Part shown: positions 31,148 through 40,283 of the stretch, piece by piece
Position numbering within the stretch: the stretch's first letter is position 1
Layout: every line of letters starts with the position of its first letter
Assembly: GCA_036397815.1 (NCBI GenBank)
Contig: DASWIE010000059.1
Coordinates: 1 to 63,180, forward strand
DNA: 63,180 nt
Direction of reading: 5' to 3'
Source of the DNA: Candidatus Limnocylindria bacterium
GTDB lineage: Bacteria > Chloroflexota > Limnocylindria > QHBO01
Position numbers and translations under genes: made by a program
Notes under the pieces: generated by a model
Databases searched by the model: none
What the model was told of the DNA's origin: nothing
What the model saw: only the letters and a program-made list of their open reading frames with translations

Positions 31148-32161
31148 ATGAATGAACTCGAGGCAACTGCGCGCGCCCTTGTCGCCCCGGACAAGGGGAT
31201 CCTCGCCGCCGATGAGAGCACCGGCTCGATCCAGAAGCGATTCGAAGCGGTCGCCGTCGAGTCCACGCCCGAGACCCGCCGGGCTTACCGCGAGCTCCTG
31301 TTCACCACGCCAGGCATTGGGGAATCCATCAGCGGCGTGATCATGTTCGACGAGACGATCCGGCAGGCAACCGGTGACGGTGTGCCGTTCCCGCGGCTGC
31401 TCGTGGATCGCGGAGTCATCCCGGGGATCAAGGTCGACGCGGGCGCGAAGCCACTCGCGCTCGCCTCCGGCGAGACGATCACAGAAGGTCTCGACGGCCT
31501 ACGCGAACGGCTTGCGGAGTACCGGGACCTTGGGGCTCGCTTCACGAAGTGGCGAGCCGTCATCAGGATCGGCCGGGACATTCCCAGCAACTACGCAATC
31601 TGGACTAACGCCCATGCACTTGCCCGCTTCGCGGCGTTGTCACAGGAGGCGGGGCTCGTGCCAATCGTCGAGCCGGAAGTCCTCATGGACGGGGACCATA
31701 CGGTCGAACAGTCCGGTCATGTGACTTCGCTGACGCTTCTCGCGGTTTTCACTGAGCTTCACGATCAGCGCGTGCGGCTCGAGGGCATGCTGCTCAAACC
31801 GAACATGGTGCTGCCGGGCTACAACGCGCCAGTTCAGGCGTCACCGGGTGAGGTCGCCGACGCCACGCTGGCGTGCTTCCGACGCACGGTGCCGGCCGCG
31901 GTTCCCGGGATCGTGTTCCTGTCGGGCGGCCAGAGCGAGCAACGGGCGACCGAGAACCTCAACGCCATAAACGCCACGCAACCGCTCCCGTGGCAGATCT
32001 CGTTCTCGTACGGGCGAGCGCTCCAGGCGGCGGCGCTCACGGCCTGGGCAGGCAAGCCGGCGAACGTCGTCGACGCGCAGCGCGCCTTCCACCGCCGAGC
32101 GAAGCTCAACGCGGCCGCCCGCGCCGGGAGGTACACGCCCGAGATGGAATCGGTCGCGTAG
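31148..32161 (+). CDS. fba: Class I fructose-bisphosphate aldolase
   Basis: KGILAADES, GIKVD, KWR, VPIVEPEV, Schiff-base LLKPNMV, FLSGGQS and FSYGRALQ. Confidence 0.97.
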   Translation: MNELEATARALVAPDKGILAADESTGSIQKRFEAVAVESTPETRRAYRELLFTTPGIGESISGVIMFDETIRQATGDGVPFPRLLVDRGVIPGIKVDAGAKPLALASGETITEGLDGLRERLAEYRDLGARFTKWRAVIRIGRDIPSNYAIWTNAHALARFAALSQEAGLVPIVEPEVLMDGDHTVEQSGHVTSLTLLAVFTELHDQRVRLEGMLLKPNMVLPGYNAPVQASPGEVADATLACFRRTVPAAVPGIVFLSGGQSEQRATENLNAINATQPLPWQISFSYGRALQAAALTAWAGKPANVVDAQRAFHRRAKLNAAARAGRYTPEMESVA

Positions 32162-32176
32162 TCGCGCGCGGGCCTC

Positions 32177-32536
32177 CTAGCGGAGGCCCGAGACGAGGGT
32201 GAACGCGAGCAATGGCGCGACCAGCAGCCCCATCGTGGCGGCCAGCAGGTACCAGTCGCGCGCGGCGCGGGGATCGGCGACGCCACGCCGCAGGAGGCCG
32301 CCTGTCCAGGCCAGCACGGCGGAGAGCCCGGCCACATACAGCCCCGCGGCGAGCAGCACGACGCCCACCGCGAACGGGCGGACGCGCTCGCACGAGCCGA
32401 AGGCGAGCGGCCCGCCGGCTGGGCAGGCAGCGGACAGCTCTGCCACCACCAGCGCGCCGGCGGCGAGCAGGACGGCGACCGACCAGGCGAGGTGGACGAG
32501 CAGGCGGCGGGAGATCTCGGCGTCCGGCGGGGTCAG
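32177..32536 (-). CDS. Hypothetical membrane protein, last gene of the Rieske/cyt b operon; probable CTG start
   Basis: Three hydrophobic helices and a Cys pair in a loop (AACPAGG...GSCER). The in-frame CTG overlaps the upstream TGA (CTGA). Start is inferred. Confidence 0.55.
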   Translation of the reverse strand: MTPPDAEISRRLLVHLAWSVAVLLAAGALVVAELSAACPAGGPLAFGSCERVRPFAVGVVLLAAGLYVAGLSAVLAWTGGLLRRGVADPRAARDWYLLAATMGLLVAPLLAFTLVSGLR

Positions 32537-33114
32537 CCGCCGGACGACCAGGCGGCGCCGGCGGCAGCGGCCGCTTCCGCCTCGCGCCGCGTCACGCGCC
32601 GATACTCGAACCACAGGTAGACGCAGGCCATGGCGCCCATGCCGGCTGCGGCCACTCCCAGGGCCAACGCCCGGAGCGGGAAGGCGGGCGGGATGATCGA
32701 TCCGCCGGCCAGGTTGAAGACCATGAATGGGATGAGCACCAGCACGGTGAGGAGGTACAGGAGGAAGGCGAGATACCGGATCAACGACCAGAAGAAGCCT
32801 CGCCGTCCGCGCGCGGCCTGGATCCACACGATCAGGATGACGATAAGCACGAAGTTGGTGCCGCCCACGACGTTCGAGACCAGGAAGCCCACGTCCTTGC
32901 TGAACTTGAGCACGTAGAGCGTCACGGCGTAATAGGCGTAGTTCGGGATGTAGAAGATCAGGAAGTACATGAACAGGAAGAGGGGCACGCCCTTCAGGAG
33001 GGCCACCACCCAGGTCTCGTAGCCGAAGAGCAGCCAGTTCATGAAGTCCTCGACGTCGCGCGCGGCGCGCACGACCAGGCCCCGGCGCGGTGGACTCAGG
33101 TAGGTGCTCGTCAT
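32533..33114 (-). CDS. Hypothetical polytopic membrane protein in the Rieske/cyt b operon
   Basis: About four aromatic-rich TM helices; 7 nt downstream of the cytochrome c gene. Confidence 0.8.
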   Translation of the reverse strand: MTSTYLSPPRRGLVVRAARDVEDFMNWLLFGYETWVVALLKGVPLFLFMYFLIFYIPNYAYYAVTLYVLKFSKDVGFLVSNVVGGTNFVLIVILIVWIQAARGRRGFFWSLIRYLAFLLYLLTVLVLIPFMVFNLAGGSIIPPAFPLRALALGVAAAGMGAMACVYLWFEYRRVTRREAEAAAAAGAAWSSGG

Positions 33115-33121
33115 CGCTGCC

Positions 33122-34171
33122 CTACTGCTTCTGGGTCAAGAGGAAGGTGATGAGGGCCTGTAGCGCATCGTCACTGATCTTGCCCTCGGGATGGACGGGC
33201 ATGCCGGTCGCCTGCCCGTCGTTGTAGTTCGTGGCGGAGTCGCGAATCCACAGCTCCAGCATGTTGCGCGCGTCGGCCTCGTAGTCGGCCACCAGCTTGT
33301 CGAGCTGGCTGATCGGCGTCGGGAGGTCGGTGACGGGCTCGTTGCCGACGTTGAGCAGGCTCGGAGCGATGTCGGTGCCGGCCAGGTCGGCGCCGTGGCA
33401 CCCGCCGCAGCCAGCCGAGGCGTAGACCTGCGCACCGTCCTCGGGCGTATTCGACACCGGAGGCTGTGACTGGCTGGCCGCTTCCTCCGCCCAGCTGGTG
33501 ATCAGCGCGCTGAGGGCGGCGATCTGCTCCACCGTCAGCGGCCCGCCCACGTCGGTGCTCCAGGCGGGCATCGGTGAGTTGACGTCGCCGGAGACGACGA
33601 CGCCTCCGTAGCTGATCACGAGCCTGACGTAATCGGCGTTGACCTTGAGCTTCGCGGCGATCGACGCGCTGTGCAGGTTCGGCGCGAGGCGGCCGGTATT
33701 GCCGACCGGGCCGCCCTCGCCGGTCGCCCCATGGCAGCGCGCGCAGTTGGCGGCGGCGTCGCTGAGCGCCTCCGGCCCGACCGTCACCGAGAGCGTGCCA
33801 CCGCTGCTGGCGGTCGCCTCGAACGTGCCTTCGGTGATGTAGCGGTGCGTCGAGTTGGCGGCGGCCTTGATCGGCAGCTCGAACGTCTCCCTGCCCGTCC
33901 CGCTCACGACCACGTCCCCGCCGGTGTCGTTGAAGAAGCGTACGGTGCCGTTGACGGGGATCTCGACCTCGGCCGGATCGATGGTGCCAGCCGTCATGTG
34001 CACTTCGACGACGACGGTGTCCGGGCCGAAGATCTGCTCCCCGAAGGAGAGCAGCTCCTCCTGCTGGGCGGCGAAGGCCGCGTCGCGGCGGCTCGCATCG
34101 GTCAGCCAATAGAGGCCGGTGAAGAAGGCCATGGCGATGATGAGGAAGACGCCGAGCGTCTTGAGGCGCAT
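33122..34171 (-). CDS. Membrane-anchored diheme cytochrome c with an inserted beta-rich domain
   Basis: N-terminal TM; CARCH and CGGCH, each with a downstream MP axial Met; about 80-aa insert between GEQIF and the first CxxCH. Confidence 0.9.
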   Translation of the reverse strand: MRLKTLGVFLIIAMAFFTGLYWLTDASRRDAAFAAQQEELLSFGEQIFGPDTVVVEVHMTAGTIDPAEVEIPVNGTVRFFNDTGGDVVVSGTGRETFELPIKAAANSTHRYITEGTFEATASSGGTLSVTVGPEALSDAAANCARCHGATGEGGPVGNTGRLAPNLHSASIAAKLKVNADYVRLVISYGGVVVSGDVNSPMPAWSTDVGGPLTVEQIAALSALITSWAEEAASQSQPPVSNTPEDGAQVYASAGCGGCHGADLAGTDIAPSLLNVGNEPVTDLPTPISQLDKLVADYEADARNMLELWIRDSATNYNDGQATGMPVHPEGKISDDALQALITFLLTQKQ

Positions 34172-34174
34172 CAG

Positions 34175-34780
34175 TCAGCCCGCGCAGTGGGGCATCTGGT
34201 CGGGGGTGCGCGTGTCGAAGGTTTCGGTGCCAATCGGCGGGCCGTCCACGATCGCGCTCGTGTCGACCACGTACACGCCATCCTCGATGGTGAAGTCGAA
34301 GTGGTCCATGCCGCGCGGAGCCGGCCCGTCGCGCTTCTCGCCGAGCACGGTGTACTTGCTGCCGTGGCACAGGCATTCGAACCATTTGCTGGCGTCGCAC
34401 AGCTGCGGGATCTGGCAGCCGAGGTGCGGACACTTGCGGTAGAGGGCCAGGACCTGGTCGCCTGGATCCGCCACCTCGGTGCCGGCCCCCTCCACGTACC
34501 CTTCGGCCGCCGGGATGTTGACGATGAAGAGGCGGGCCTTGTTGTAGATGAACGGCAGCCCCCGCGGCCACTCCGGCTCCAGCGCGGCGATGTCCGCCGC
34601 GCTGCCGATCGCCAGCTTGCCGCCCAGCCCTGAGCGTACGTTCGGCCACAGGAAGGCGAGCGAGCCGGCGAGGAACTCGAGCGACAGCAGGCCGACGCCG
34701 ATGCCGACCACGCGTCGCATGAAGGAACGCCGGCTCATCTCGCCGACGGGCGGCCCGTGAACCTCCCCGTAGGGCTGCAT
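34175..34780 (-). CDS. qcrA: Rieske iron-sulfur subunit of a quinol:cytochrome c oxidoreductase
   Basis: Tat motif SRRSF plus TM; KCPHLGC; CLCHGSKY; GPAPRGM. Confidence 0.93.
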   Translation of the reverse strand: MQPYGEVHGPPVGEMSRRSFMRRVVGIGVGLLSLEFLAGSLAFLWPNVRSGLGGKLAIGSAADIAALEPEWPRGLPFIYNKARLFIVNIPAAEGYVEGAGTEVADPGDQVLALYRKCPHLGCQIPQLCDASKWFECLCHGSKYTVLGEKRDGPAPRGMDHFDFTIEDGVYVVDTSAIVDGPPIGTETFDTRTPDQMPHCAG

Positions 34781-34782
34781 GC

Positions 34783-35397
34783 TCACAGCGTGAAGAAGAT
34801 CCCGTCCCACGGCCAGACCCAGTTCCAGCCCGGGCCGCGGAAGAAGGAACCGATGAAGGTCACGATCAGGCCCCCGACCATGAGGCACATGAAGAAGACC
34901 CAGGCCAGCTTGCGGTCGTGGGTGGCCCGGTACGGCGATCGGTCGAGGTACGGGATCAGGGCGATGCCGATGAAGTAGAGCGGCATGAACAGGATGCCGA
35001 CCACGGTCGCGTTGAAGTACGAGAGCATCTCCTGCAGGCCGAGGAAGTACCACGGTGCCTTGGCCACGTGCGGGGTCACGCCGGCGTTCGCCATGTCCTC
35101 CAGCGGCGCCTGGATCAGGAATGAGGTGACGATCAGCACGATGGTCATCAGCGAGGCCATCACGAACTCGGCGCGCAGCAGGTGAGGCCAGGTGAGGACG
35201 GTCTCATCGGGGCGCTTGTCGACGCGGACCATCGACTCCTGCTTGACATAGGCCAGCAGCCGGAAGCGCTCGGTGCCCGGCACGCCGGGCGGGCCCGGCA
35301 GCTTCGGGCCGACGCCGCGCTCGACGAGCGGGACGCCGGGCGCCTGGGTCGGAACGTTCTTGTCGGCGGTGGCGTTCGGCCGCTTCTCGATCGTCAT
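34783..35397 (-). CDS. Split cytochrome b C-terminal subunit (subunit IV/PetD/QcrC-like)
   Basis: TWPHLL, KAPWYFLGLQEML (PEWY variant) and IPYLDRS. Confidence 0.9.
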   Translation of the reverse strand: MTIEKRPNATADKNVPTQAPGVPLVERGVGPKLPGPPGVPGTERFRLLAYVKQESMVRVDKRPDETVLTWPHLLRAEFVMASLMTIVLIVTSFLIQAPLEDMANAGVTPHVAKAPWYFLGLQEMLSYFNATVVGILFMPLYFIGIALIPYLDRSPYRATHDRKLAWVFFMCLMVGGLIVTFIGSFFRGPGWNWVWPWDGIFFTL

Positions 35398-35410
35398 CGG
35401 TTCACCTTCA

Positions 35411-36130
35411 TCAGACTGGGCCCGAGATGCCGCCGTCCTTCCGGATCCGCCAGAAGTGGACGACGATCAGGATGGCGGCGAGAAGGGGGAATGCGATCAC
35501 GTGAAGGACGTAGAACCGGATCAGGGTGCCCTGTCCCACCTCGATCCCGCCCAGCAGCACGAAGGCTGACTGAGTGTCGACGAGCGGCGCATAGGTCGCC
35601 ATCTGGGTGCCGACCGTGATCGCCCAGAACGCGATCTGGTCCCATGGCAGCAGGTAGCCGGTGAAGCTCAGGGCCAGGGTCATGAACAGGAGCAGGGAGC
35701 CGATCGCCCAGTTGAACTCGCGCGGCGGCTTGTAGGCGCCGTGGTAGAAGACCCGGATCATGTGCAGGAAGACGGTCAGCACCATCAGGTGCGCCGCCCA
35801 GCGATGCATGTTGCGGATGAGCGAGCCGAAGGCGACCGAGTTCTCGATGGTCTGGATGTCCTGGAAGGCGCGCGTGACCGACGGAACGTAGAAGAACATC
35901 AGGTAGACGCCGGTCACCGTCAGCGCCAGGAACAGGAAGAAGCTGATCCCGCCCAGGCAGAAGGTGTAGGTGTAGCGGATGGCGTGCTTCTTGACCCGCA
36001 CCGGGTGCAGGTGCAGGAAGACGTTGTTCATGACCGCCAGCGCGCGGGTGCGGCTGGTCGTGGGATAGGGCTGACGGAACAGGCTTCTCCACAGCTGGGA
36101 CTCGATCACGAGCCGCCACAGGAAGCTCAT
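35411..36130 (-). CDS. qcrB: Cytochrome b6-type subunit
   Basis: TFCLGG (heme ci Cys), RNMHRWAAH, FLHMIRVF, RE.NW, GYLLPWDQ and FYVLH...VHF. Confidence 0.95.
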   Translation of the reverse strand: MSFLWRLVIESQLWRSLFRQPYPTTSRTRALAVMNNVFLHLHPVRVKKHAIRYTYTFCLGGISFFLFLALTVTGVYLMFFYVPSVTRAFQDIQTIENSVAFGSLIRNMHRWAAHLMVLTVFLHMIRVFYHGAYKPPREFNWAIGSLLLFMTLALSFTGYLLPWDQIAFWAITVGTQMATYAPLVDTQSAFVLLGGIEVGQGTLIRFYVLHVIAFPLLAAILIVVHFWRIRKDGGISGPV

Positions 36131-38100
36131 CGGTCCACCGCCGGTCCGGCCTGCTGGCCGACCTGCCCCAGCACGTTGTCCTTGTAACTCTCCAAGAGCA
36201 CCTTCCCGTCGGGCGTGAACCGCTCCAGCTCGAGCCGGTCCATCGTGATGCAGTTGGTTGGACACCGCTCGACGCAGAGGTTGCAGCGGATGCAACGCTC
36301 CTCGTCGATGATCATTGCGATCCCGCGCGGCCACGACTGGAAGAGATCGATCTCCGGATCGTCGCCGCCGACCTGCGCCTTGTCGACCATGTAGATGACG
36401 CCTTCAGGGCAGACGTCGGCGCAGAGCCCGCACAGGATACAGCGCGGCCCGTCGATGTTGATGTTGTGGTTGCACTGCAGGCAGCGCGCCCCTTCGGCGA
36501 TCGCACTGCGCGTGTCGTAGCCGACCTCCACCAGGCTGGTGAAGTCGCGGCGCAGCTCCGGCGGCGCCATCGGGATGTGCTGGCGCTCGGTCGCCTCGTA
36601 GGCCCACGGCATGTCGTGGTCGAGCGCCTGGGTGATGGTGGCGCGGTTGATGACCGGCAGCTCCTCCAGCTCGTCGCCGCGGACACCCGCCAGCCAGCGG
36701 TCGACGGCGCGCGCGGTCCGCCGGCCCCGACCCGCGGCCTCGATGATGGTGGCGGGCCCGGTCACGAAGTCGCCGCACGCGAAGATGCCGTCCACGTTGG
36801 TCTGGAACGTATCCGGGTTGGTGACGACCAGCCCCCGGTTCAGCTCGAACGTGAGCGCGTTGTAGGGCTTCCCATCCGGGCTCGCGGGAGTCGTCCCGTT
36901 GAGCGGCGGGGTGCGCCAGGATGAGACCGATCCACCGGGCACGATCTCGCGGGTGTCCGTCACGCCGAGGTGGCGATTGAGCTTAGAGCCGTACTCGCCG
37001 AGCACGTTGTTGTCCGACGCCTGGCTGGTGCACGGAATGACCATGTCGCACGGAATCGTGAACTCGCTGCCCGGGATCGGCTCCGGCGAGCGGCGGCCGC
37101 TTGCGTCCGGCGGGCCGAGCTTCACGCGCTGGAAGACCATGCCGGTCACCTTGCCGCGCTCGTCGCCGAGCACCTCGACCGGGGACGCGAAGAGCTCGAA
37201 GCGCACGCCCTCGAAGCGGGTCTCGTGCTGCTCCTCCTCGTCGACCACCATCTCCTCCGGGCCACGGCGATAGCAGATCACCGAGGTCTTGGCCCCGAGC
37301 CGGAGCGCGGTGCGCGACGAGTCCATCGCCGTGTAGCCGCCACCCACGATCACCACGTGGTCGCCGACCCACTGCTCCTCGCCGAGGTTCGCCTTCTTGA
37401 GGAAGTCGACGCCGTAGATCACGCCGTCCAGCTCCTCGCCGGGGACGTTCATGGCGACCGGATACATGCAGCCGGCGGAGACGACCACCGCGTCAAACCG
37501 CTCGCGCAGCTGGTCGATGGTGATGTCGCGGCCAATCTCGACGTTGTAGTGGAACTCGACCCCGTGCTTGGCGACCCAGTTCACGTCCAGCTCGATCACG
37601 TCGCGCGGCAGCCGGAAGGCCGGGACCCCGATCAGGCACGTGCCGCCGCCCGACGGGAGCGCCTCGTAGAGGTGCACCTCGTGGCCGTCGGCGGCCAGCT
37701 CCTTGGCGGCCGACAGGCCGGCCGGTCCGGCACCGATAACCGCGACGCTCTTGCCGGTCGCGGCGGCGACTACGATGTTGTCCGGCATGTTGTTGCCGTA
37801 GTGCCAGTCCACCAGGAAGCGCTTCATGGCCCGGATGGCGAGCGGCTTGTCGATGTCGGCGCGGCGGCAGGCCTTCTCACACGGCGCCGAGCAGACGTAG
37901 CCGCAGATCGCCGCGACCGGGTTCGGGTCTCGGGCCAGGATGTAGCCCTCCTCGAAGCGTCCCTCGGCGGCGAGCATCAGGTAGCCGCGGCAGTTGGTGT
38001 TGACCGGGCAGCCTTCCTGGCACTCGATGTTGCACTGGAGCCAGTCGACGCCGACCTCGGCGGTCTGGAACCTCAGCGGGATCGCGTTCTCGGTGATCAC
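36127..38100 (-). CDS. NAD(P)H/FAD oxidoreductase of the GltD/NfnB/SudA/DsrL superfamily with C-terminal 2x[4Fe-4S] ferredoxin
   Basis: CQEGCP, CGYVCSAPCEKACRR, GAGPAG, GGGYTAMD, YRR, FACGD, EGARCLQC, CILCGLCADVCP and CIRCNLCVERCP; ATGA overlap with cytochrome b. Confidence 0.9.
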   Translation of the reverse strand: MITENAIPLRFQTAEVGVDWLQCNIECQEGCPVNTNCRGYLMLAAEGRFEEGYILARDPNPVAAICGYVCSAPCEKACRRADIDKPLAIRAMKRFLVDWHYGNNMPDNIVVAAATGKSVAVIGAGPAGLSAAKELAADGHEVHLYEALPSGGGTCLIGVPAFRLPRDVIELDVNWVAKHGVEFHYNVEIGRDITIDQLRERFDAVVVSAGCMYPVAMNVPGEELDGVIYGVDFLKKANLGEEQWVGDHVVIVGGGYTAMDSSRTALRLGAKTSVICYRRGPEEMVVDEEEQHETRFEGVRFELFASPVEVLGDERGKVTGMVFQRVKLGPPDASGRRSPEPIPGSEFTIPCDMVIPCTSQASDNNVLGEYGSKLNRHLGVTDTREIVPGGSVSSWRTPPLNGTTPASPDGKPYNALTFELNRGLVVTNPDTFQTNVDGIFACGDFVTGPATIIEAAGRGRRTARAVDRWLAGVRGDELEELPVINRATITQALDHDMPWAYEATERQHIPMAPPELRRDFTSLVEVGYDTRSAIAEGARCLQCNHNINIDGPRCILCGLCADVCPEGVIYMVDKAQVGGDDPEIDLFQSWPRGIAMIIDEERCIRCNLCVERCPTNCITMDRLELERFTPDGKVLLESYKDNVLGQVGQQAGPAVDR

Positions 38101-38159
38101 AGGCGTAATCGCAGAGCGGGTTCCACCACGTAACGCGGAGCGTATGGAGCGGCAGCCCG

Positions 38160-38189
38160 ATGCTACCCGTCTCGCGCTCTGAGTGTCAA
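38160..38189 (-). promoter_or_regulatory. Near-consensus sigma70 promoter of the flavoprotein-Rieske/cyt b operon
   Basis: TTGACA-N18-TAGCAT on the minus strand. Confidence 0.65.
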
Positions 38190-38222
38190 AGCGGACTGCG
38201 CGGGCCGTGCCTCACTTTCGCG

Positions 38223-40283
38223 CTACAGATCGGCGAAGTAGCGGGACATTACCCGGCGCACGAGCGGGGCCGCATCCGAGCCGCCGGTCGCCAGCGGGAC
38301 GCGAACGAGGACGGTGGCGATGCTGATCCCGGGGTCGTCCGCGGGGGCGAAGGCCGGGAACCAGGCGTTCGGATTCGGTCCACCGGTCTCGGCGGTTCCA
38401 CTCTTGCCCGCCACCTGGACGCCAAAGCCCGCGAATGCAGAACGCGCGGTTCCGTACGACAGGTTGACCACGGCCTTCATCGACTCCACCACGTAGTCGA
38501 GCTGCGCGTCGGTCATGCTGATCTCGCGGGCGACGATTTGCTCCACGCGAAGCTGCGTCGTCCCACCGGGAGAACGCACCTCGGCGACGAGTCGCGGGAC
38601 CCAGAGCACGCCGCCGTTACCGAACGCCGCGTACGCGTTGGCCATCTGGAGCGGCGTCGCGAGCAGGTCGCCCTGGCCGATCGCCAGCTGGATCTGGTCG
38701 AAGGGCCCGTACGGGCGGAGGACACCGTCCCAGCGCTTGGTGACCTCGAAATACTGCCGGTCCGGAAGGATCCCGTCCTCCTCGGCGAGGTGCTGGATGC
38801 CGGTGGGCTGTCCAAAGCCGAACTCACGAACTAGGCCGGTGAGCGCCTCCTGGTCGGCGTCGTAGACCATGATCGATAGCGGCATGTAGGTGGTGTTGCA
38901 GCTGAAGGCCATCGCCTGCAGCAGGTTCACCGTCCCGGGCAGCTGGTGCTCGAGATAGTTGCGGAACGTGAAGCCGGAGAAGGTCCAGGTGCCGTGGCAG
39001 GTCATGCGGGTGCCGGGCCCGGCGACGCCGCTCTTCAGCGCCGCGCCCAGGGTGAACACCTTGAACGACGAGCCGGTTGGGTAGGCGCCCATGGTGGCGT
39101 GGTTGAGCCGGGTGTTGGTGCCGGGCGTACCGAGACCCTGACCACCCAGCGTGGTCCCCAGGGTCATCGCGTTCGGGTTGAAGAGCGGAGCCGATGCCAG
39201 CGCCCACACGTCGCCGCTCCGCGGATCGACCACTGCCGTGCCGGCCTCCGCGTAGCCGCCGATGGCCGCCTCCGCGGCCGCCTGGATCCTGGGCCGAATG
39301 GTGATGACGACGTCGCTGCCCGGCACCATCGCCCGCTGCAGCACCGGCAGCGGATCGCCGGCCGGCGGGACCACGGCCAGCGTGAAGCCCGGACGTCCAC
39401 GGAGCAGCTCGTCGGCGCCCGCCTCGATGCCACCGCGGCCCCTGACGTCGCCGGCGAGGTAGCCCTCCCGCCCGAGTGTCCTCAGCTCATCCTCGGTGAC
39501 CTCGCCGACCCAGCCAATCGTCTGCCCGGCGAGCCACTCCTGGGGGTAGACGCGCACCCCATCCTCGCGGGTCTGGGCAAAGACGGTGCCTTCAGTGGCC
39601 ATGATCCGGCCCCGTGGAGCGTCCTGCCGCGTTAGCGCCAGCGCCCCGCCCTCGGCGAGCTCCGGAAACAGCACGGCGGGGCTCCAGCTGACCTGCCAGC
39701 CGGTTGCGCCCTGCACCATCACGAGATCGCGTTTCAGGTCCACATCGCCAAGGAGGTCCGTCCTGAACTGCAGCACGACCGGGATGCGCACTGCGGGCAC
39801 CGGGCCATCGAGTGGCGTGTCGGCGGGCACGGGGGTGGTGGAGGGCGTCGGCTCGGCCGTCGTGGCGGGCGACGTGCTCGCGGAGCCGTCCTGCGACGGG
39901 CCTAACGTCGGCACCGGCGTGGTGGTCGGCGCCGGCTGGTCCGGGGGGCGCGCCTGGGGTGGGAGCGTCGTCGGGATCGTCGGCCCCACCGCCCAGCGCA
40001 GCTGCCGTACACCGGTCAGCTCGTCGAAGCTCCTGAGCGGCGCCGCGAACTCGTCGAGGCTGAGGCGCTCGCGGTCGGCGGCAGCGATCATCTGGTACAT
40101 CGGCCCCCAGCTCCCGATCCGCCACGCGGCGAGGAAAGCATGGACCATGTCGTCGGCCTCGCCGATTGGCGCGGTGGGGACCGTCGTGGAAAAGGGCGTC
40201 GGATCCGGTCCAGGCGCCAGGCAGCCCGCAACCACGACCGCGCCCAGCGCCAGCGCGACGAGCGGCGCAGCTCTCCCCCGCAT
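38223..40283 (-). CDS. Class B penicillin-binding transpeptidase, lipoprotein, with MecA_N-like domain
   Basis: Lipobox VAGC, WQVSWSP, PRGRI, SxxK (GSSFK), SxN (SCN) and KSG. Confidence 0.88.
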   Translation of the reverse strand: MRGRAAPLVALALGAVVVAGCLAPGPDPTPFSTTVPTAPIGEADDMVHAFLAAWRIGSWGPMYQMIAAADRERLSLDEFAAPLRSFDELTGVRQLRWAVGPTIPTTLPPQARPPDQPAPTTTPVPTLGPSQDGSASTSPATTAEPTPSTTPVPADTPLDGPVPAVRIPVVLQFRTDLLGDVDLKRDLVMVQGATGWQVSWSPAVLFPELAEGGALALTRQDAPRGRIMATEGTVFAQTREDGVRVYPQEWLAGQTIGWVGEVTEDELRTLGREGYLAGDVRGRGGIEAGADELLRGRPGFTLAVVPPAGDPLPVLQRAMVPGSDVVITIRPRIQAAAEAAIGGYAEAGTAVVDPRSGDVWALASAPLFNPNAMTLGTTLGGQGLGTPGTNTRLNHATMGAYPTGSSFKVFTLGAALKSGVAGPGTRMTCHGTWTFSGFTFRNYLEHQLPGTVNLLQAMAFSCNTTYMPLSIMVYDADQEALTGLVREFGFGQPTGIQHLAEEDGILPDRQYFEVTKRWDGVLRPYGPFDQIQLAIGQGDLLATPLQMANAYAAFGNGGVLWVPRLVAEVRSPGGTTQLRVEQIVAREISMTDAQLDYVVESMKAVVNLSYGTARSAFAGFGVQVAGKSGTAETGGPNPNAWFPAFAPADDPGISIATVLVRVPLATGGSDAAPLVRRVMSRYFADL

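Follow-up and report, generated by a model that had tools for sequence, protein, structure and literature searches.

A flavoprotein gene coupled to the Rieske/cytochrome b6 genes of Candidatus Limnocylindria may encode an NADP(H)-linked subunit of the complex

A stretch of 63,180 nucleotides from Candidatus Limnocylindria bacterium (GenBank assembly GCA_036397815.1, contig DASWIE010000059.1, positions 1 to 63,180; the window below) contains seven tightly packed minus-strand open reading frames (ORFs; 32177–38100) downstream of a single promoter-like site. The first of them encodes a 657-aa flavoprotein and is followed by the genes of a Rieske/cytochrome b6 complex. According to the analysis presented here, the flavoprotein is, on balance, a peripheral subunit at the cytoplasmic face of the only Rieske/cytochrome b6 complex of the cell, where it would wire NADP(H) to the b-haem chain, with the exit of electrons from quinol to NADP+ as the favoured direction. 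Gene order and the analogy with anammox bacteria make it probable that the protein is a real subunit of the complex. The subunit reading is the best one because the coupling of the genes is conserved, they are lost together, their pairing recurs in distant phyla, and anammox complexes provide a precedent.

The flavoprotein gene (36127–38100; this and all other operon features lie on the minus strand) contains the Pfam domains Fer4_20, Pyr_redox_2 and Pyr_redox and a C-terminal 4Fe-4S dicluster. Its neighbours are a penicillin-binding-protein (PBP) gene on one side and the gene of the 239-aa cytochrome b6 of the four-helix type (35411–36130; Pfam) on the other. The TGA stop codon of the flavoprotein overlaps the ATG start codon of cytochrome b6 in the sequence ATGA at 36127–36130, as the sequence-only reading of this DNA had noted. 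Throughout the operon, the genes overlap or are spaced by 13 nt or less. The promoter-like element TTGACA-N18-TAGCAT (38160–38189; a consensus match only) is located 60 nt upstream of the GTG start of the flavoprotein, in the 122-nt gap after the PBP gene. This is the sole sigma-70-like match across 31500–38700 (7.2 kb; the shuffle mean was 0.5), and the scan of the same region detected no internal promoter-like or terminator-like sites in the operon. The single promoter proposed earlier for the set of seven genes was thereby recovered as a predicted site.

All close homologs of the flavoprotein (85–97% identity) belong to Chloroflexota, Candidatus Limnocylindria, and the 657-aa homologs within this range support the GTG start. 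A cytochrome b match was found in 251 of 401 Chloroflexota genomes, and 20 cytochrome b loci, one per genome, were compared from four Limnocylindria families and 13 other Chloroflexota families. The flavoprotein gene was found directly upstream of cytochrome b in each of the seven Limnocylindria loci, which represent the four families. In addition, 80 species-representative loci with the flavoprotein gene were retrieved, all of them from Limnocylindria or Limnocylindrales. Wherever enough downstream DNA was available in these loci, cytochrome b followed the flavoprotein, the one exception being a paralog with 41% identity. The adjacency of the flavoprotein and petB, for which the sequence-only reading had suggested a synteny survey, is conserved across the class in both samples. 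The 4-nt overlap of stop and start codons was counted at 33 of 61 junctions; 16 more junctions were mis-scored automatically, and the two of these that were inspected show the same overlap, which gives about 49 of 61 junctions with this overlap.

Open frames of 883 and 991 aa that cover both genes in two relatives were considered as possible fusions and were ruled out, since the flavoprotein and cytochrome b are read in different frames. In the locus L090, the two genes are in frame and separated by a TAG codon, a natural read-through arrangement. The whole operon was also found in a contig labelled Steroidobacteraceae (L028, JAICUY010000026.1), where the flavoprotein is 89% and cytochrome b 85% identical to those of the window. 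The contig almost certainly comes from Limnocylindria and was placed by binning error in a gammaproteobacterial metagenome-assembled genome (MAG).

Seven Limnocylindria genomes without cytochrome b are also devoid of a flavoprotein ortholog, the best match being 45–46% and limited to the N-terminal part. In three control Limnocylindria genomes with cytochrome b, the flavoprotein gene is adjacent to it. The seven genomes (G151, G169, G178, G187, G205, G237 and G389) come from two Limnocylindria genera, are 91–95% complete and retain PntB and glucose-6-phosphate dehydrogenase (G6PD). Because of the class-wide adjacency, the coupling overlap and the co-loss with cytochrome b, a functional tie of the flavoprotein to the Rieske/cytochrome b genes is supported by genome comparison, and the pairing is not due to chance.

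The flavoprotein sequence contains the elements expected of an NADP(H)-binding Fe-S protein. The N-terminal region includes C23, C27, C31, C37, C66, C70, C74 and C78 (37867–38034), assigned by motif and alignment to two [4Fe-4S] clusters. It is followed by the FAD Rossmann motif VIGAGPAG at residues 121–128 (GAGPAG at 123–128; 37717–37740; Pfam and motif) and by the NAD(P)H Rossmann motif, which extends from GGGYTAMD through Y277-R278-R279 (37264–37353) and includes a YRR of the NADP type. The C-terminal ferredoxin domain (residues 539–617; 36250–36486) contains an RCxxC motif (RC540xxC543) and two CxxCxxCxxxCP motifs at residues 554–564 and 603–613. Alignment of 32–40 family members showed that C27, C31, C70, C74, C78, C540, C543 and the eight ferredoxin cysteines are invariant, as are G123, G125 and G128, and that YRRSRxEM is the family consensus around YRR. 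In NfnB, YRR contacts the 2'-phosphate, and the motif is a hallmark of the NADP(H)-specific DsrL-2 (PMC7596348). The pattern of invariant cysteines fits four [4Fe-4S] clusters. The Fer4_20 match covers profile positions 25–111 only; to judge from the alignment, RC540xxC543 probably works with the N-terminal cysteine region and replaces the RCxxC that opens canonical GltD/NfnB. It is probably through the C-terminal ferredoxin domain that the Fe-S wire makes contact. The architecture described by the sequence-only reading, namely 657 aa with N-terminal Fe-S cysteines, two Rossmann folds, YRR and a C-terminal 2x[4Fe-4S] ferredoxin, was confirmed in all its parts by motifs and Pfam.

Sequence comparison with the Protein Data Bank (PDB) gave 9n5u_A, the A subunit of NfnABC, as the best match of the flavoprotein (1e-100), followed by 9bov_A, 8oh5_C (StnC), 4ylf_B (NfnB, 3e-82) and then GltD. 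For the C-terminal domain, the same database gave matches to FwdF and NuoI. The AlphaFold2 model, based on 40 sequences, is compact and includes the ferredoxin domain (pLDDT 83.7, pTM 0.84); only the insertion 383–397 and the final 16 residues are disordered. According to Foldseek, the nearest folds are NfnABC-A and StnC, then NfnB and GltD; E-values for NfnABC-A, StnC and NfnB range from 2e-51 to 2e-40, with NfnB found at 2e-40 and a TM score of 0.82 on target. These closest structural relatives use the same module as the NADP(H) site within a larger complex. As predicted from both sequence and model, the flavoprotein is a cytoplasmic NADP(H)/FAD module carrying an Fe-S wire.

With NfnABC-A, StnC and NfnB (9bov, 9n5u, 8oh5, 4ylf), the flavoprotein shares the fold, FAD, NADPH binding (YRR), the Fe-S motifs and the ferredoxin-like clusters, with E-values from 1e-100 to 3e-82 in the sequence search and from 2e-51 to 2e-40 in the fold search. 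In contrast to Bfu-type transhydrogenases, it has neither adjacent NfnA or NuoE/F-like partner genes nor the ~500-aa formate-dehydrogenase-like C-terminal half, and the partner encoded beside it, unlike that of the Bfu-type enzymes and NfnB, is a membrane cytochrome b. The sequence-only reading had pointed to flavin-based bifurcation of the NfnB type. This is not indicated here: NfnA does not adjoin the flavoprotein gene (NfnA was looked for among the neighbours and not elsewhere in the genome), neither a second acceptor branch nor a partner is present, and by fold the protein comes closest to the NADP(H) modules of NfnABC-A and StnC. Any bifurcation in this system would be the ordinary one at the Qo site.

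It is also very improbable that the protein is a true DsrL, GltD or NfnB whose DsrAB, GltB or NfnA partner is encoded elsewhere, despite its NfnB/GltD fold. The DsrL comparison made by the sequence-only reading is correct for the domain order (N-terminal 2x[4Fe-4S], FAD with an embedded NAD(P) domain, linker, C-terminal 2x[4Fe-4S] ferredoxin) and for YRR, which is of the DsrL-2 type, but not for identity. By definition, DsrL demands dsrAB in the organism (PMC7596348). The window, as stated earlier, contains no dsr gene, the dsrA model TIGR02064 gave no match in the host assembly (2.03 Mb, 87% complete; all genome-wide negatives below refer to it), and the gene context is that of a Rieske/cytochrome b complex. 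The sequence-only reading had regarded a GltB partner elsewhere as evidence against its own proposal; no real GltB was detected in the genome, the best PF01645 match reaching 24 bits. The GltD/gltA NCBIfam models scored far under their cut-offs on the flavoprotein, and the sole other GltD-like gene of the genome is fused within the nuo cluster. The DsrL and GltD identities are already largely refuted.

Beyond the class, 22,624 representatives with the flavoprotein architecture were found at E ≤ 1e-3, and dozens of them with 36–58% identity share the C-terminal domain. Gene context was analyzed for 17 members from outside Limnocylindria, sampled one protein at a time, the sample being small and biased toward long contigs; eight adjoin Rieske/cytochrome b genes. 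These eight comprise one from Brocadiales, one from Terriglobia, one from other Chloroflexi and five from further lineages. The Brocadiales cluster consists of the Rieske protein, cytochrome b, a small ORF, two flavoproteins and a multihaem cytochrome. The window flavoprotein and the one of this cluster are 39% identical over the full length and colinear, in agreement with the parallel to anammox bc operons drawn by the sequence-only reading; the comparison was made with this Brocadiales protein. In the phylogenetic tree of the family, Limnocylindria formed one well-supported clade (100/99) that grouped with the Brocadiales-containing set at weaker support (83/75). Each of the two major clades contains members linked to Rieske/cytochrome b genes, and of the five unlinked rows, four branch from within the linked ones.

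Several of these loci have features of their own. The Brocadiales MAG (L107:2900–7053, GCA_030586555.1) contains tandem paralogous flavoproteins of 574 and 595 aa within one Rieske/cytochrome b cluster, whereas published anammox accounts describe one flavoprotein per complex. In a Deltaproteobacteria MAG (L109:6001–13908, GCA_016210005.1), a flavoprotein of the family is located directly upstream of a Nar/EBDH-type set that comprises a molybdopterin subunit, an Fe-S subunit, an EB_dh haem b subunit and a NarJ-like chaperone. This flavoprotein is nested among linked members in the tree, and a different respiratory enzyme seems to have taken over the module. The locus L113:5001–11929 (GCA_937934295.1) encodes the flavoprotein, a Rieske protein, a fused cytochrome b and a cytochrome c, directly followed by a NosZ-like gene (nos_propeller and cupredoxin), which suggests that the flavoprotein-bearing complex feeds N2O reductase. 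In the loci L108:3861–5970 (Terriglobia), L112:2979–4983 and L117:2833–4987, the flavoprotein is preceded by a conserved pair of genes encoding an unassigned protein of 445–479 aa and a CarboxypepD_reg/cupredoxin-like protein of ~205 aa; both may belong, as additional components, to the form of the complex found there.

The closest known counterparts are the anammox complexes. In Kuenenia, the gene sets Kuste4569–4574 and Kustd1480–1485 encode b6-type complexes with a putative NAD(P) oxidoreductase, and the subunits co-migrate (PMC12954380). In AF3 models of these complexes, a path of four Fe-S clusters leads from the b/cn haems to FAD, and an extra haem b is predicted, with one His from each cytochrome b as ligand; among solved structures, 9bp5 and 5t5i come closest to the anammox flavoprotein (PMC12954380). 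The proposal of an NAD(P)-linked complex in anammox bacteria goes back to Kartal et al. 2013, as cited in PMC12954380. The window operon and the anammox complexes have in common a split b6-type cytochrome b, subunit IV, a Rieske protein and a GltD/NfnB-type flavoprotein with four Fe-S sites, all in one cluster, as well as the haem cn Cys and the same nearest structures (9bov/9bp5 and FwdF 5t5i). They differ in that the anammox complexes have hexa- or octahaem cytochromes and an HAO-like protein in place of the dihaem cytochrome c found here, and a subunit IV of five helices in place of the three predicted here. Moreover, the flavoprotein gene of the window comes first and overlaps cytochrome b. 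Anammox flavoproteins miss one ligand of an N-terminal cluster, whereas the window protein has all the N-terminal cluster cysteines. The hosts differ too, since that of the window has two haem-copper oxidase genes, a single complex III and no anammoxosome. The multihaem partner and the five-helix subunit IV are features of the two known anammox examples rather than of the principle. In the literature searched, nothing on flavoprotein-linked Rieske/cytochrome b operons outside anammox was found, and, in accordance with the sequence-only reading, the literature search returned no earlier description for Limnocylindria. A flavoprotein-bearing Rieske/cytochrome b complex is thus known from anammox bacteria, and the one described here is a simpler variant from a different phylum and lifestyle. 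To this the analysis adds the co-loss with cytochrome b, the confinement to a single class of Chloroflexota, a membrane core that shows no specialisation and the many stand-alone members of the family.

The membrane core of the complex has the features of the b6 type by its sequence: four histidines, the CxGG cysteine and the split between b6 and subunit IV. The ligands His109/His123 and His210/His225 of cytochrome b6 show b6 spacing. Cys58 (FCLGG; codon at 35957–35959) is the site that we take, by homology to b6f and firmicute enzymes, to attach haem cn (ci) covalently. This Cys in a b6-type core is shared with cytochrome b6f, the complex that binds ferredoxin-NADP+ reductase (FNR), with firmicute/heliobacterial b6c and with Geobacter ExtOPQ. 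The window cytochrome b passes the NCBIfam cytb_ExtP cut-off narrowly (293.8 bits, cut-off 290). The Geobacter ext cluster lacks a flavoprotein (PMC5877670).

In the proposed mechanism, the Rieske/cytochrome b6 complex would move electrons from quinol to cytochrome c, with the soluble NADP(H)-binding flavoprotein docked on its N side. FAD would be joined to the N-side haem bN/cn via four [4Fe-4S] clusters, two of them N-terminal and NfnB-like and the other two within the C-terminal ferredoxin domain. Through such a complex, NADP(H) and the low-potential branch of quinol oxidation could exchange electrons, while the Rieske protein, dihaem cytochrome c and oxidase branch would be retained, and probably the Q-cycle too. 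In the exit direction, with the quinone pool in a reduced state, the electron of low potential set free at Qo would travel by way of bL, bN/cn, the Fe-S clusters and FAD as far as NADP+ and yield NADPH. This transfer would be driven by the high-potential branch to oxygen, as has been proposed for anammox bacteria, and would act as a conditional valve. If the flavoprotein is a subunit, the exit direction is given a tentative preference that falls slightly short of an even chance. It is favoured because the NADP-specific YRR suggests an anabolic product and because of the anammox argument.

The same subunit could also work in reverse, as an NADPH:cytochrome c oxidoreductase in which electrons run from NADPH through FAD and the four Fe-S clusters to haem cn/bN and to menaquinone at Q_N. 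Considered as a whole, this explanation is rather unlikely; with the subunit taken as given, entry becomes a serious possibility, though a doubtful one. Judged from established potentials, it would be downhill by ~250–300 mV and would stay on one side of the membrane, and it would be hard to prevent if the electron path exists. Since the core has the same haem cn Cys and N-side motifs as its unlinked relatives, a working Q_N site is probable. The cytochrome b6f complex offers a precedent: it binds FNR, an NADP(H) flavoenzyme at its N side, and haem cn has been proposed as the entry point of cyclic flow. The operon-encoded protein of the window is an Fe-S protein of the NfnB type and not a plant-type FNR. 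Respiratory inputs are normally NADH-specific, whereas the flavoprotein family is of the NADP type by its YRR motif. Entry would also bypass complex I and, with complex I and PntB present, an uncoupled drain of NADPH would amount to a futile cycle; the authors of the anammox study dismissed this direction as wasteful (PMC12954380). Finally, the haem cn Cys is missing altogether in three flavoprotein-linked lineages, which speaks against entry. Gly, Tyr or Trp takes the place of this residue in L016, an unlinked Chloroflexota b6, and in L108, L112 and L113 (YGLGG, YYLG, WGLGG, FWLG). These replacements point to repeated loss of haem cn in the b6 clade, with or without the flavoprotein.

The host genome gives the setting for both directions. 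The cytochrome b of the window operon is the only one in the genome, and haem-copper oxidases are represented by one strong A-type and a second, divergent one. This gene content suggests an aerobic host that has only one complex III. A single NrfD-family gene (contig C7), paired with an Fe-S protein, was considered as a candidate for alternative complex III; it has no multihaem neighbour, and this assignment is probably incorrect according to a partial check. Because cytochrome b is single and alternative complex III is unlikely, the operon very probably provides the main route from quinol to cytochrome c. Complex I is represented by NuoH, NuoF-like and NuoL genes. The cluster with NuoH and NuoL also contains, after the NuoF-like gene, an ORF for a 790-aa fusion (contig C46:6691–9063), in which a NuoG-like [2Fe-2S] segment at the N-terminus is combined with a GltD/NfnB-like flavoprotein and a polyferredoxin; the genome has no further GltD-like gene. 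On complex I, this fusion might serve as an input module, either NADPH-linked or bifurcating.

A number of observations weigh against the preferred reading of the flavoprotein as an N-side subunit that delivers electrons to NADP+. PntB was found in 40 of 41 genomes of the class and G6PD likewise in 40 of 41, and full-length uptake [NiFe]-hydrogenases occur in only about five of the 41. The flavoprotein is absent from all 13 loci of other Chloroflexota families, in which b6 is 58–68% identical and the operons are otherwise alike. The nine of 17 members outside Limnocylindria that do not adjoin Rieske/cytochrome b genes include one by a Nar/EBDH-type molybdoenzyme, one by a nitroreductase and seven that stand alone. 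Within cytochrome b6, subunit IV and the Rieske protein, no residue separates linked from unlinked Chloroflexota. Motifs of the core, namely the N-terminal HLHP of cytochrome b, its C-terminal HFWRIRKDGGISGP, the N-terminal motif of subunit IV and the CHGSxY of the Rieske protein, are equally present in the 13 flavoprotein-free families. The membrane core seems to show no specialisation for the flavoprotein, which would mean either a generic docking surface on the N side or no docking. In addition, the exit of electrons must outcompete an apparently intact Q_N site and work against the membrane potential.

Two further details concern the same core. HLHP probably holds the His of the extra haem b proposed in the anammox models, and this motif occurs in linked and unlinked Chloroflexota. 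All Limnocylindria and the Brocadiales protein carry a His nine positions ahead of the haem cn Cys; certain unlinked proteins share this His, and other linked ones lack it.

Part of this evidence would be explained if the flavoprotein were not a subunit at all, being instead an autonomous soluble NADPH:acceptor oxidoreductase of the SudA/NfnB kind (e.g., an NADPH:ferredoxin or a thiol/polysulfide reductase), merely co-expressed with complex III. No transmembrane segment was predicted in the protein. Proteins of the same architecture with 37–42% identity are monocistronic amid housekeeping genes in four other Chloroflexota, where the b6 operon is elsewhere (these are four of the seven stand-alone members), and further family members have other neighbours or none. 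The lack of a linked-specific signature in b6, subunit IV and the Rieske protein is also compatible with this explanation. Nevertheless, it is improbable: the 4-nt overlap with cytochrome b is kept across 50–90% sequence divergence, co-loss with cytochrome b is strict (seven of seven genomes), the pairing recurs in distant phyla with differing gene orders, and the anammox homologs co-migrate with the complex (PMC12954380).

No shortage of NADPH calls for the flavoprotein. The sequence-only reading had considered reverse electron flow, and a physiological need for it is not evident, given PntB and G6PD in nearly all genomes of the class and the complex I genes of the host. A "NADPH gap" as the driving force for the flavoprotein was rejected, since PntB and G6PD are near-universal in the class. 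A lithotrophic need for reverse flow was also rejected as a general explanation, given the few genomes with uptake [NiFe]-hydrogenases. The strongest form of the exit mechanism, in which the sole complex III is a quinol-bifurcating NADP+ reductase that sends one Qo electron to oxygen and the other through the b haems and four clusters to NADP+, is regarded as unlikely.

The remaining genes of the operon were identified as follows. Subunit IV (34783–35397; 204 aa, Pfam Cytochrom_B_C) has three helices predicted from hydropathy and carries a cytoplasmic N-terminal extension of ~70 aa. The Rieske [2Fe-2S] protein (34175–34786; Pfam and motifs) contains the signal-anchor motif SRRSFMRR, with its twin arginines, as well as CPHLGC and CLCHGSKY. 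Its candidate starts are GTG 34786, in a GTGA overlap with subunit IV, ATG 34780 and ATG 34738. The membrane-anchored dihaem cytochrome c (33122–34171; 349 aa, Pfam) contains just two CxxCH motifs, CARCH at residue 143 and CGGCH at 255. A long non-cytochrome segment (33776–34018) precedes the first of them, and the N-terminal part of the protein is poorly conserved among relatives. The cytochrome c gene is followed after 7 nt by a gene for a four-helix membrane protein of 193 aa (32533–33114) and then by one for a three-helix membrane protein (32177–~32614), the start of which is uncertain: the sole canonical in-frame start is GTG 32614, and similarity to relatives begins near 32527. Neither of these distal proteins matched a Pfam or NCBIfam family, and both are conserved solely in the closest Limnocylindria family; there, the 193-aa protein is kept at 47–71%, and it is absent from Limnocylindrales-type loci. 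The gene content listed by the sequence-only reading (flavoprotein, cytochrome b6, subunit IV, Rieske protein, dihaem cytochrome c and two membrane proteins) was reproduced by the ORF and Pfam analyses.

Rieske/cytochrome b complexes are textbook enzymes to which one set function is ascribed. Diversion of a low-potential electron to NAD(P)+ by such a complex has so far been proposed from anammox bacteria alone. The window operon represents a stripped-down version of such a system, with seven genes, a dihaem cytochrome c and no multihaem or HAO-like modules. Its host class, Limnocylindria, is an abundant and mostly aerobic lineage of soil and freshwater that is dominant in many soils and lakes. 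The strict class-wide coupling, set against very similar complexes without the flavoprotein in sister classes, allows naturally occurring forms with and without it to be compared, and supplies a minimal construct for heterologous expression. If the complex is indeed a quinol-bifurcating NADP+ reductase, respiration-driven NADPH synthesis would be mainstream rather than an anammox peculiarity, and the low-potential electron could re-enter through PntAB and complex I, raising the H+/e− yield. If the link between the flavoprotein and the complex is real, the models of NADPH supply and respiratory yield for Limnocylindria would change, and the N side of b6-type complexes would be a general docking site for redox modules.

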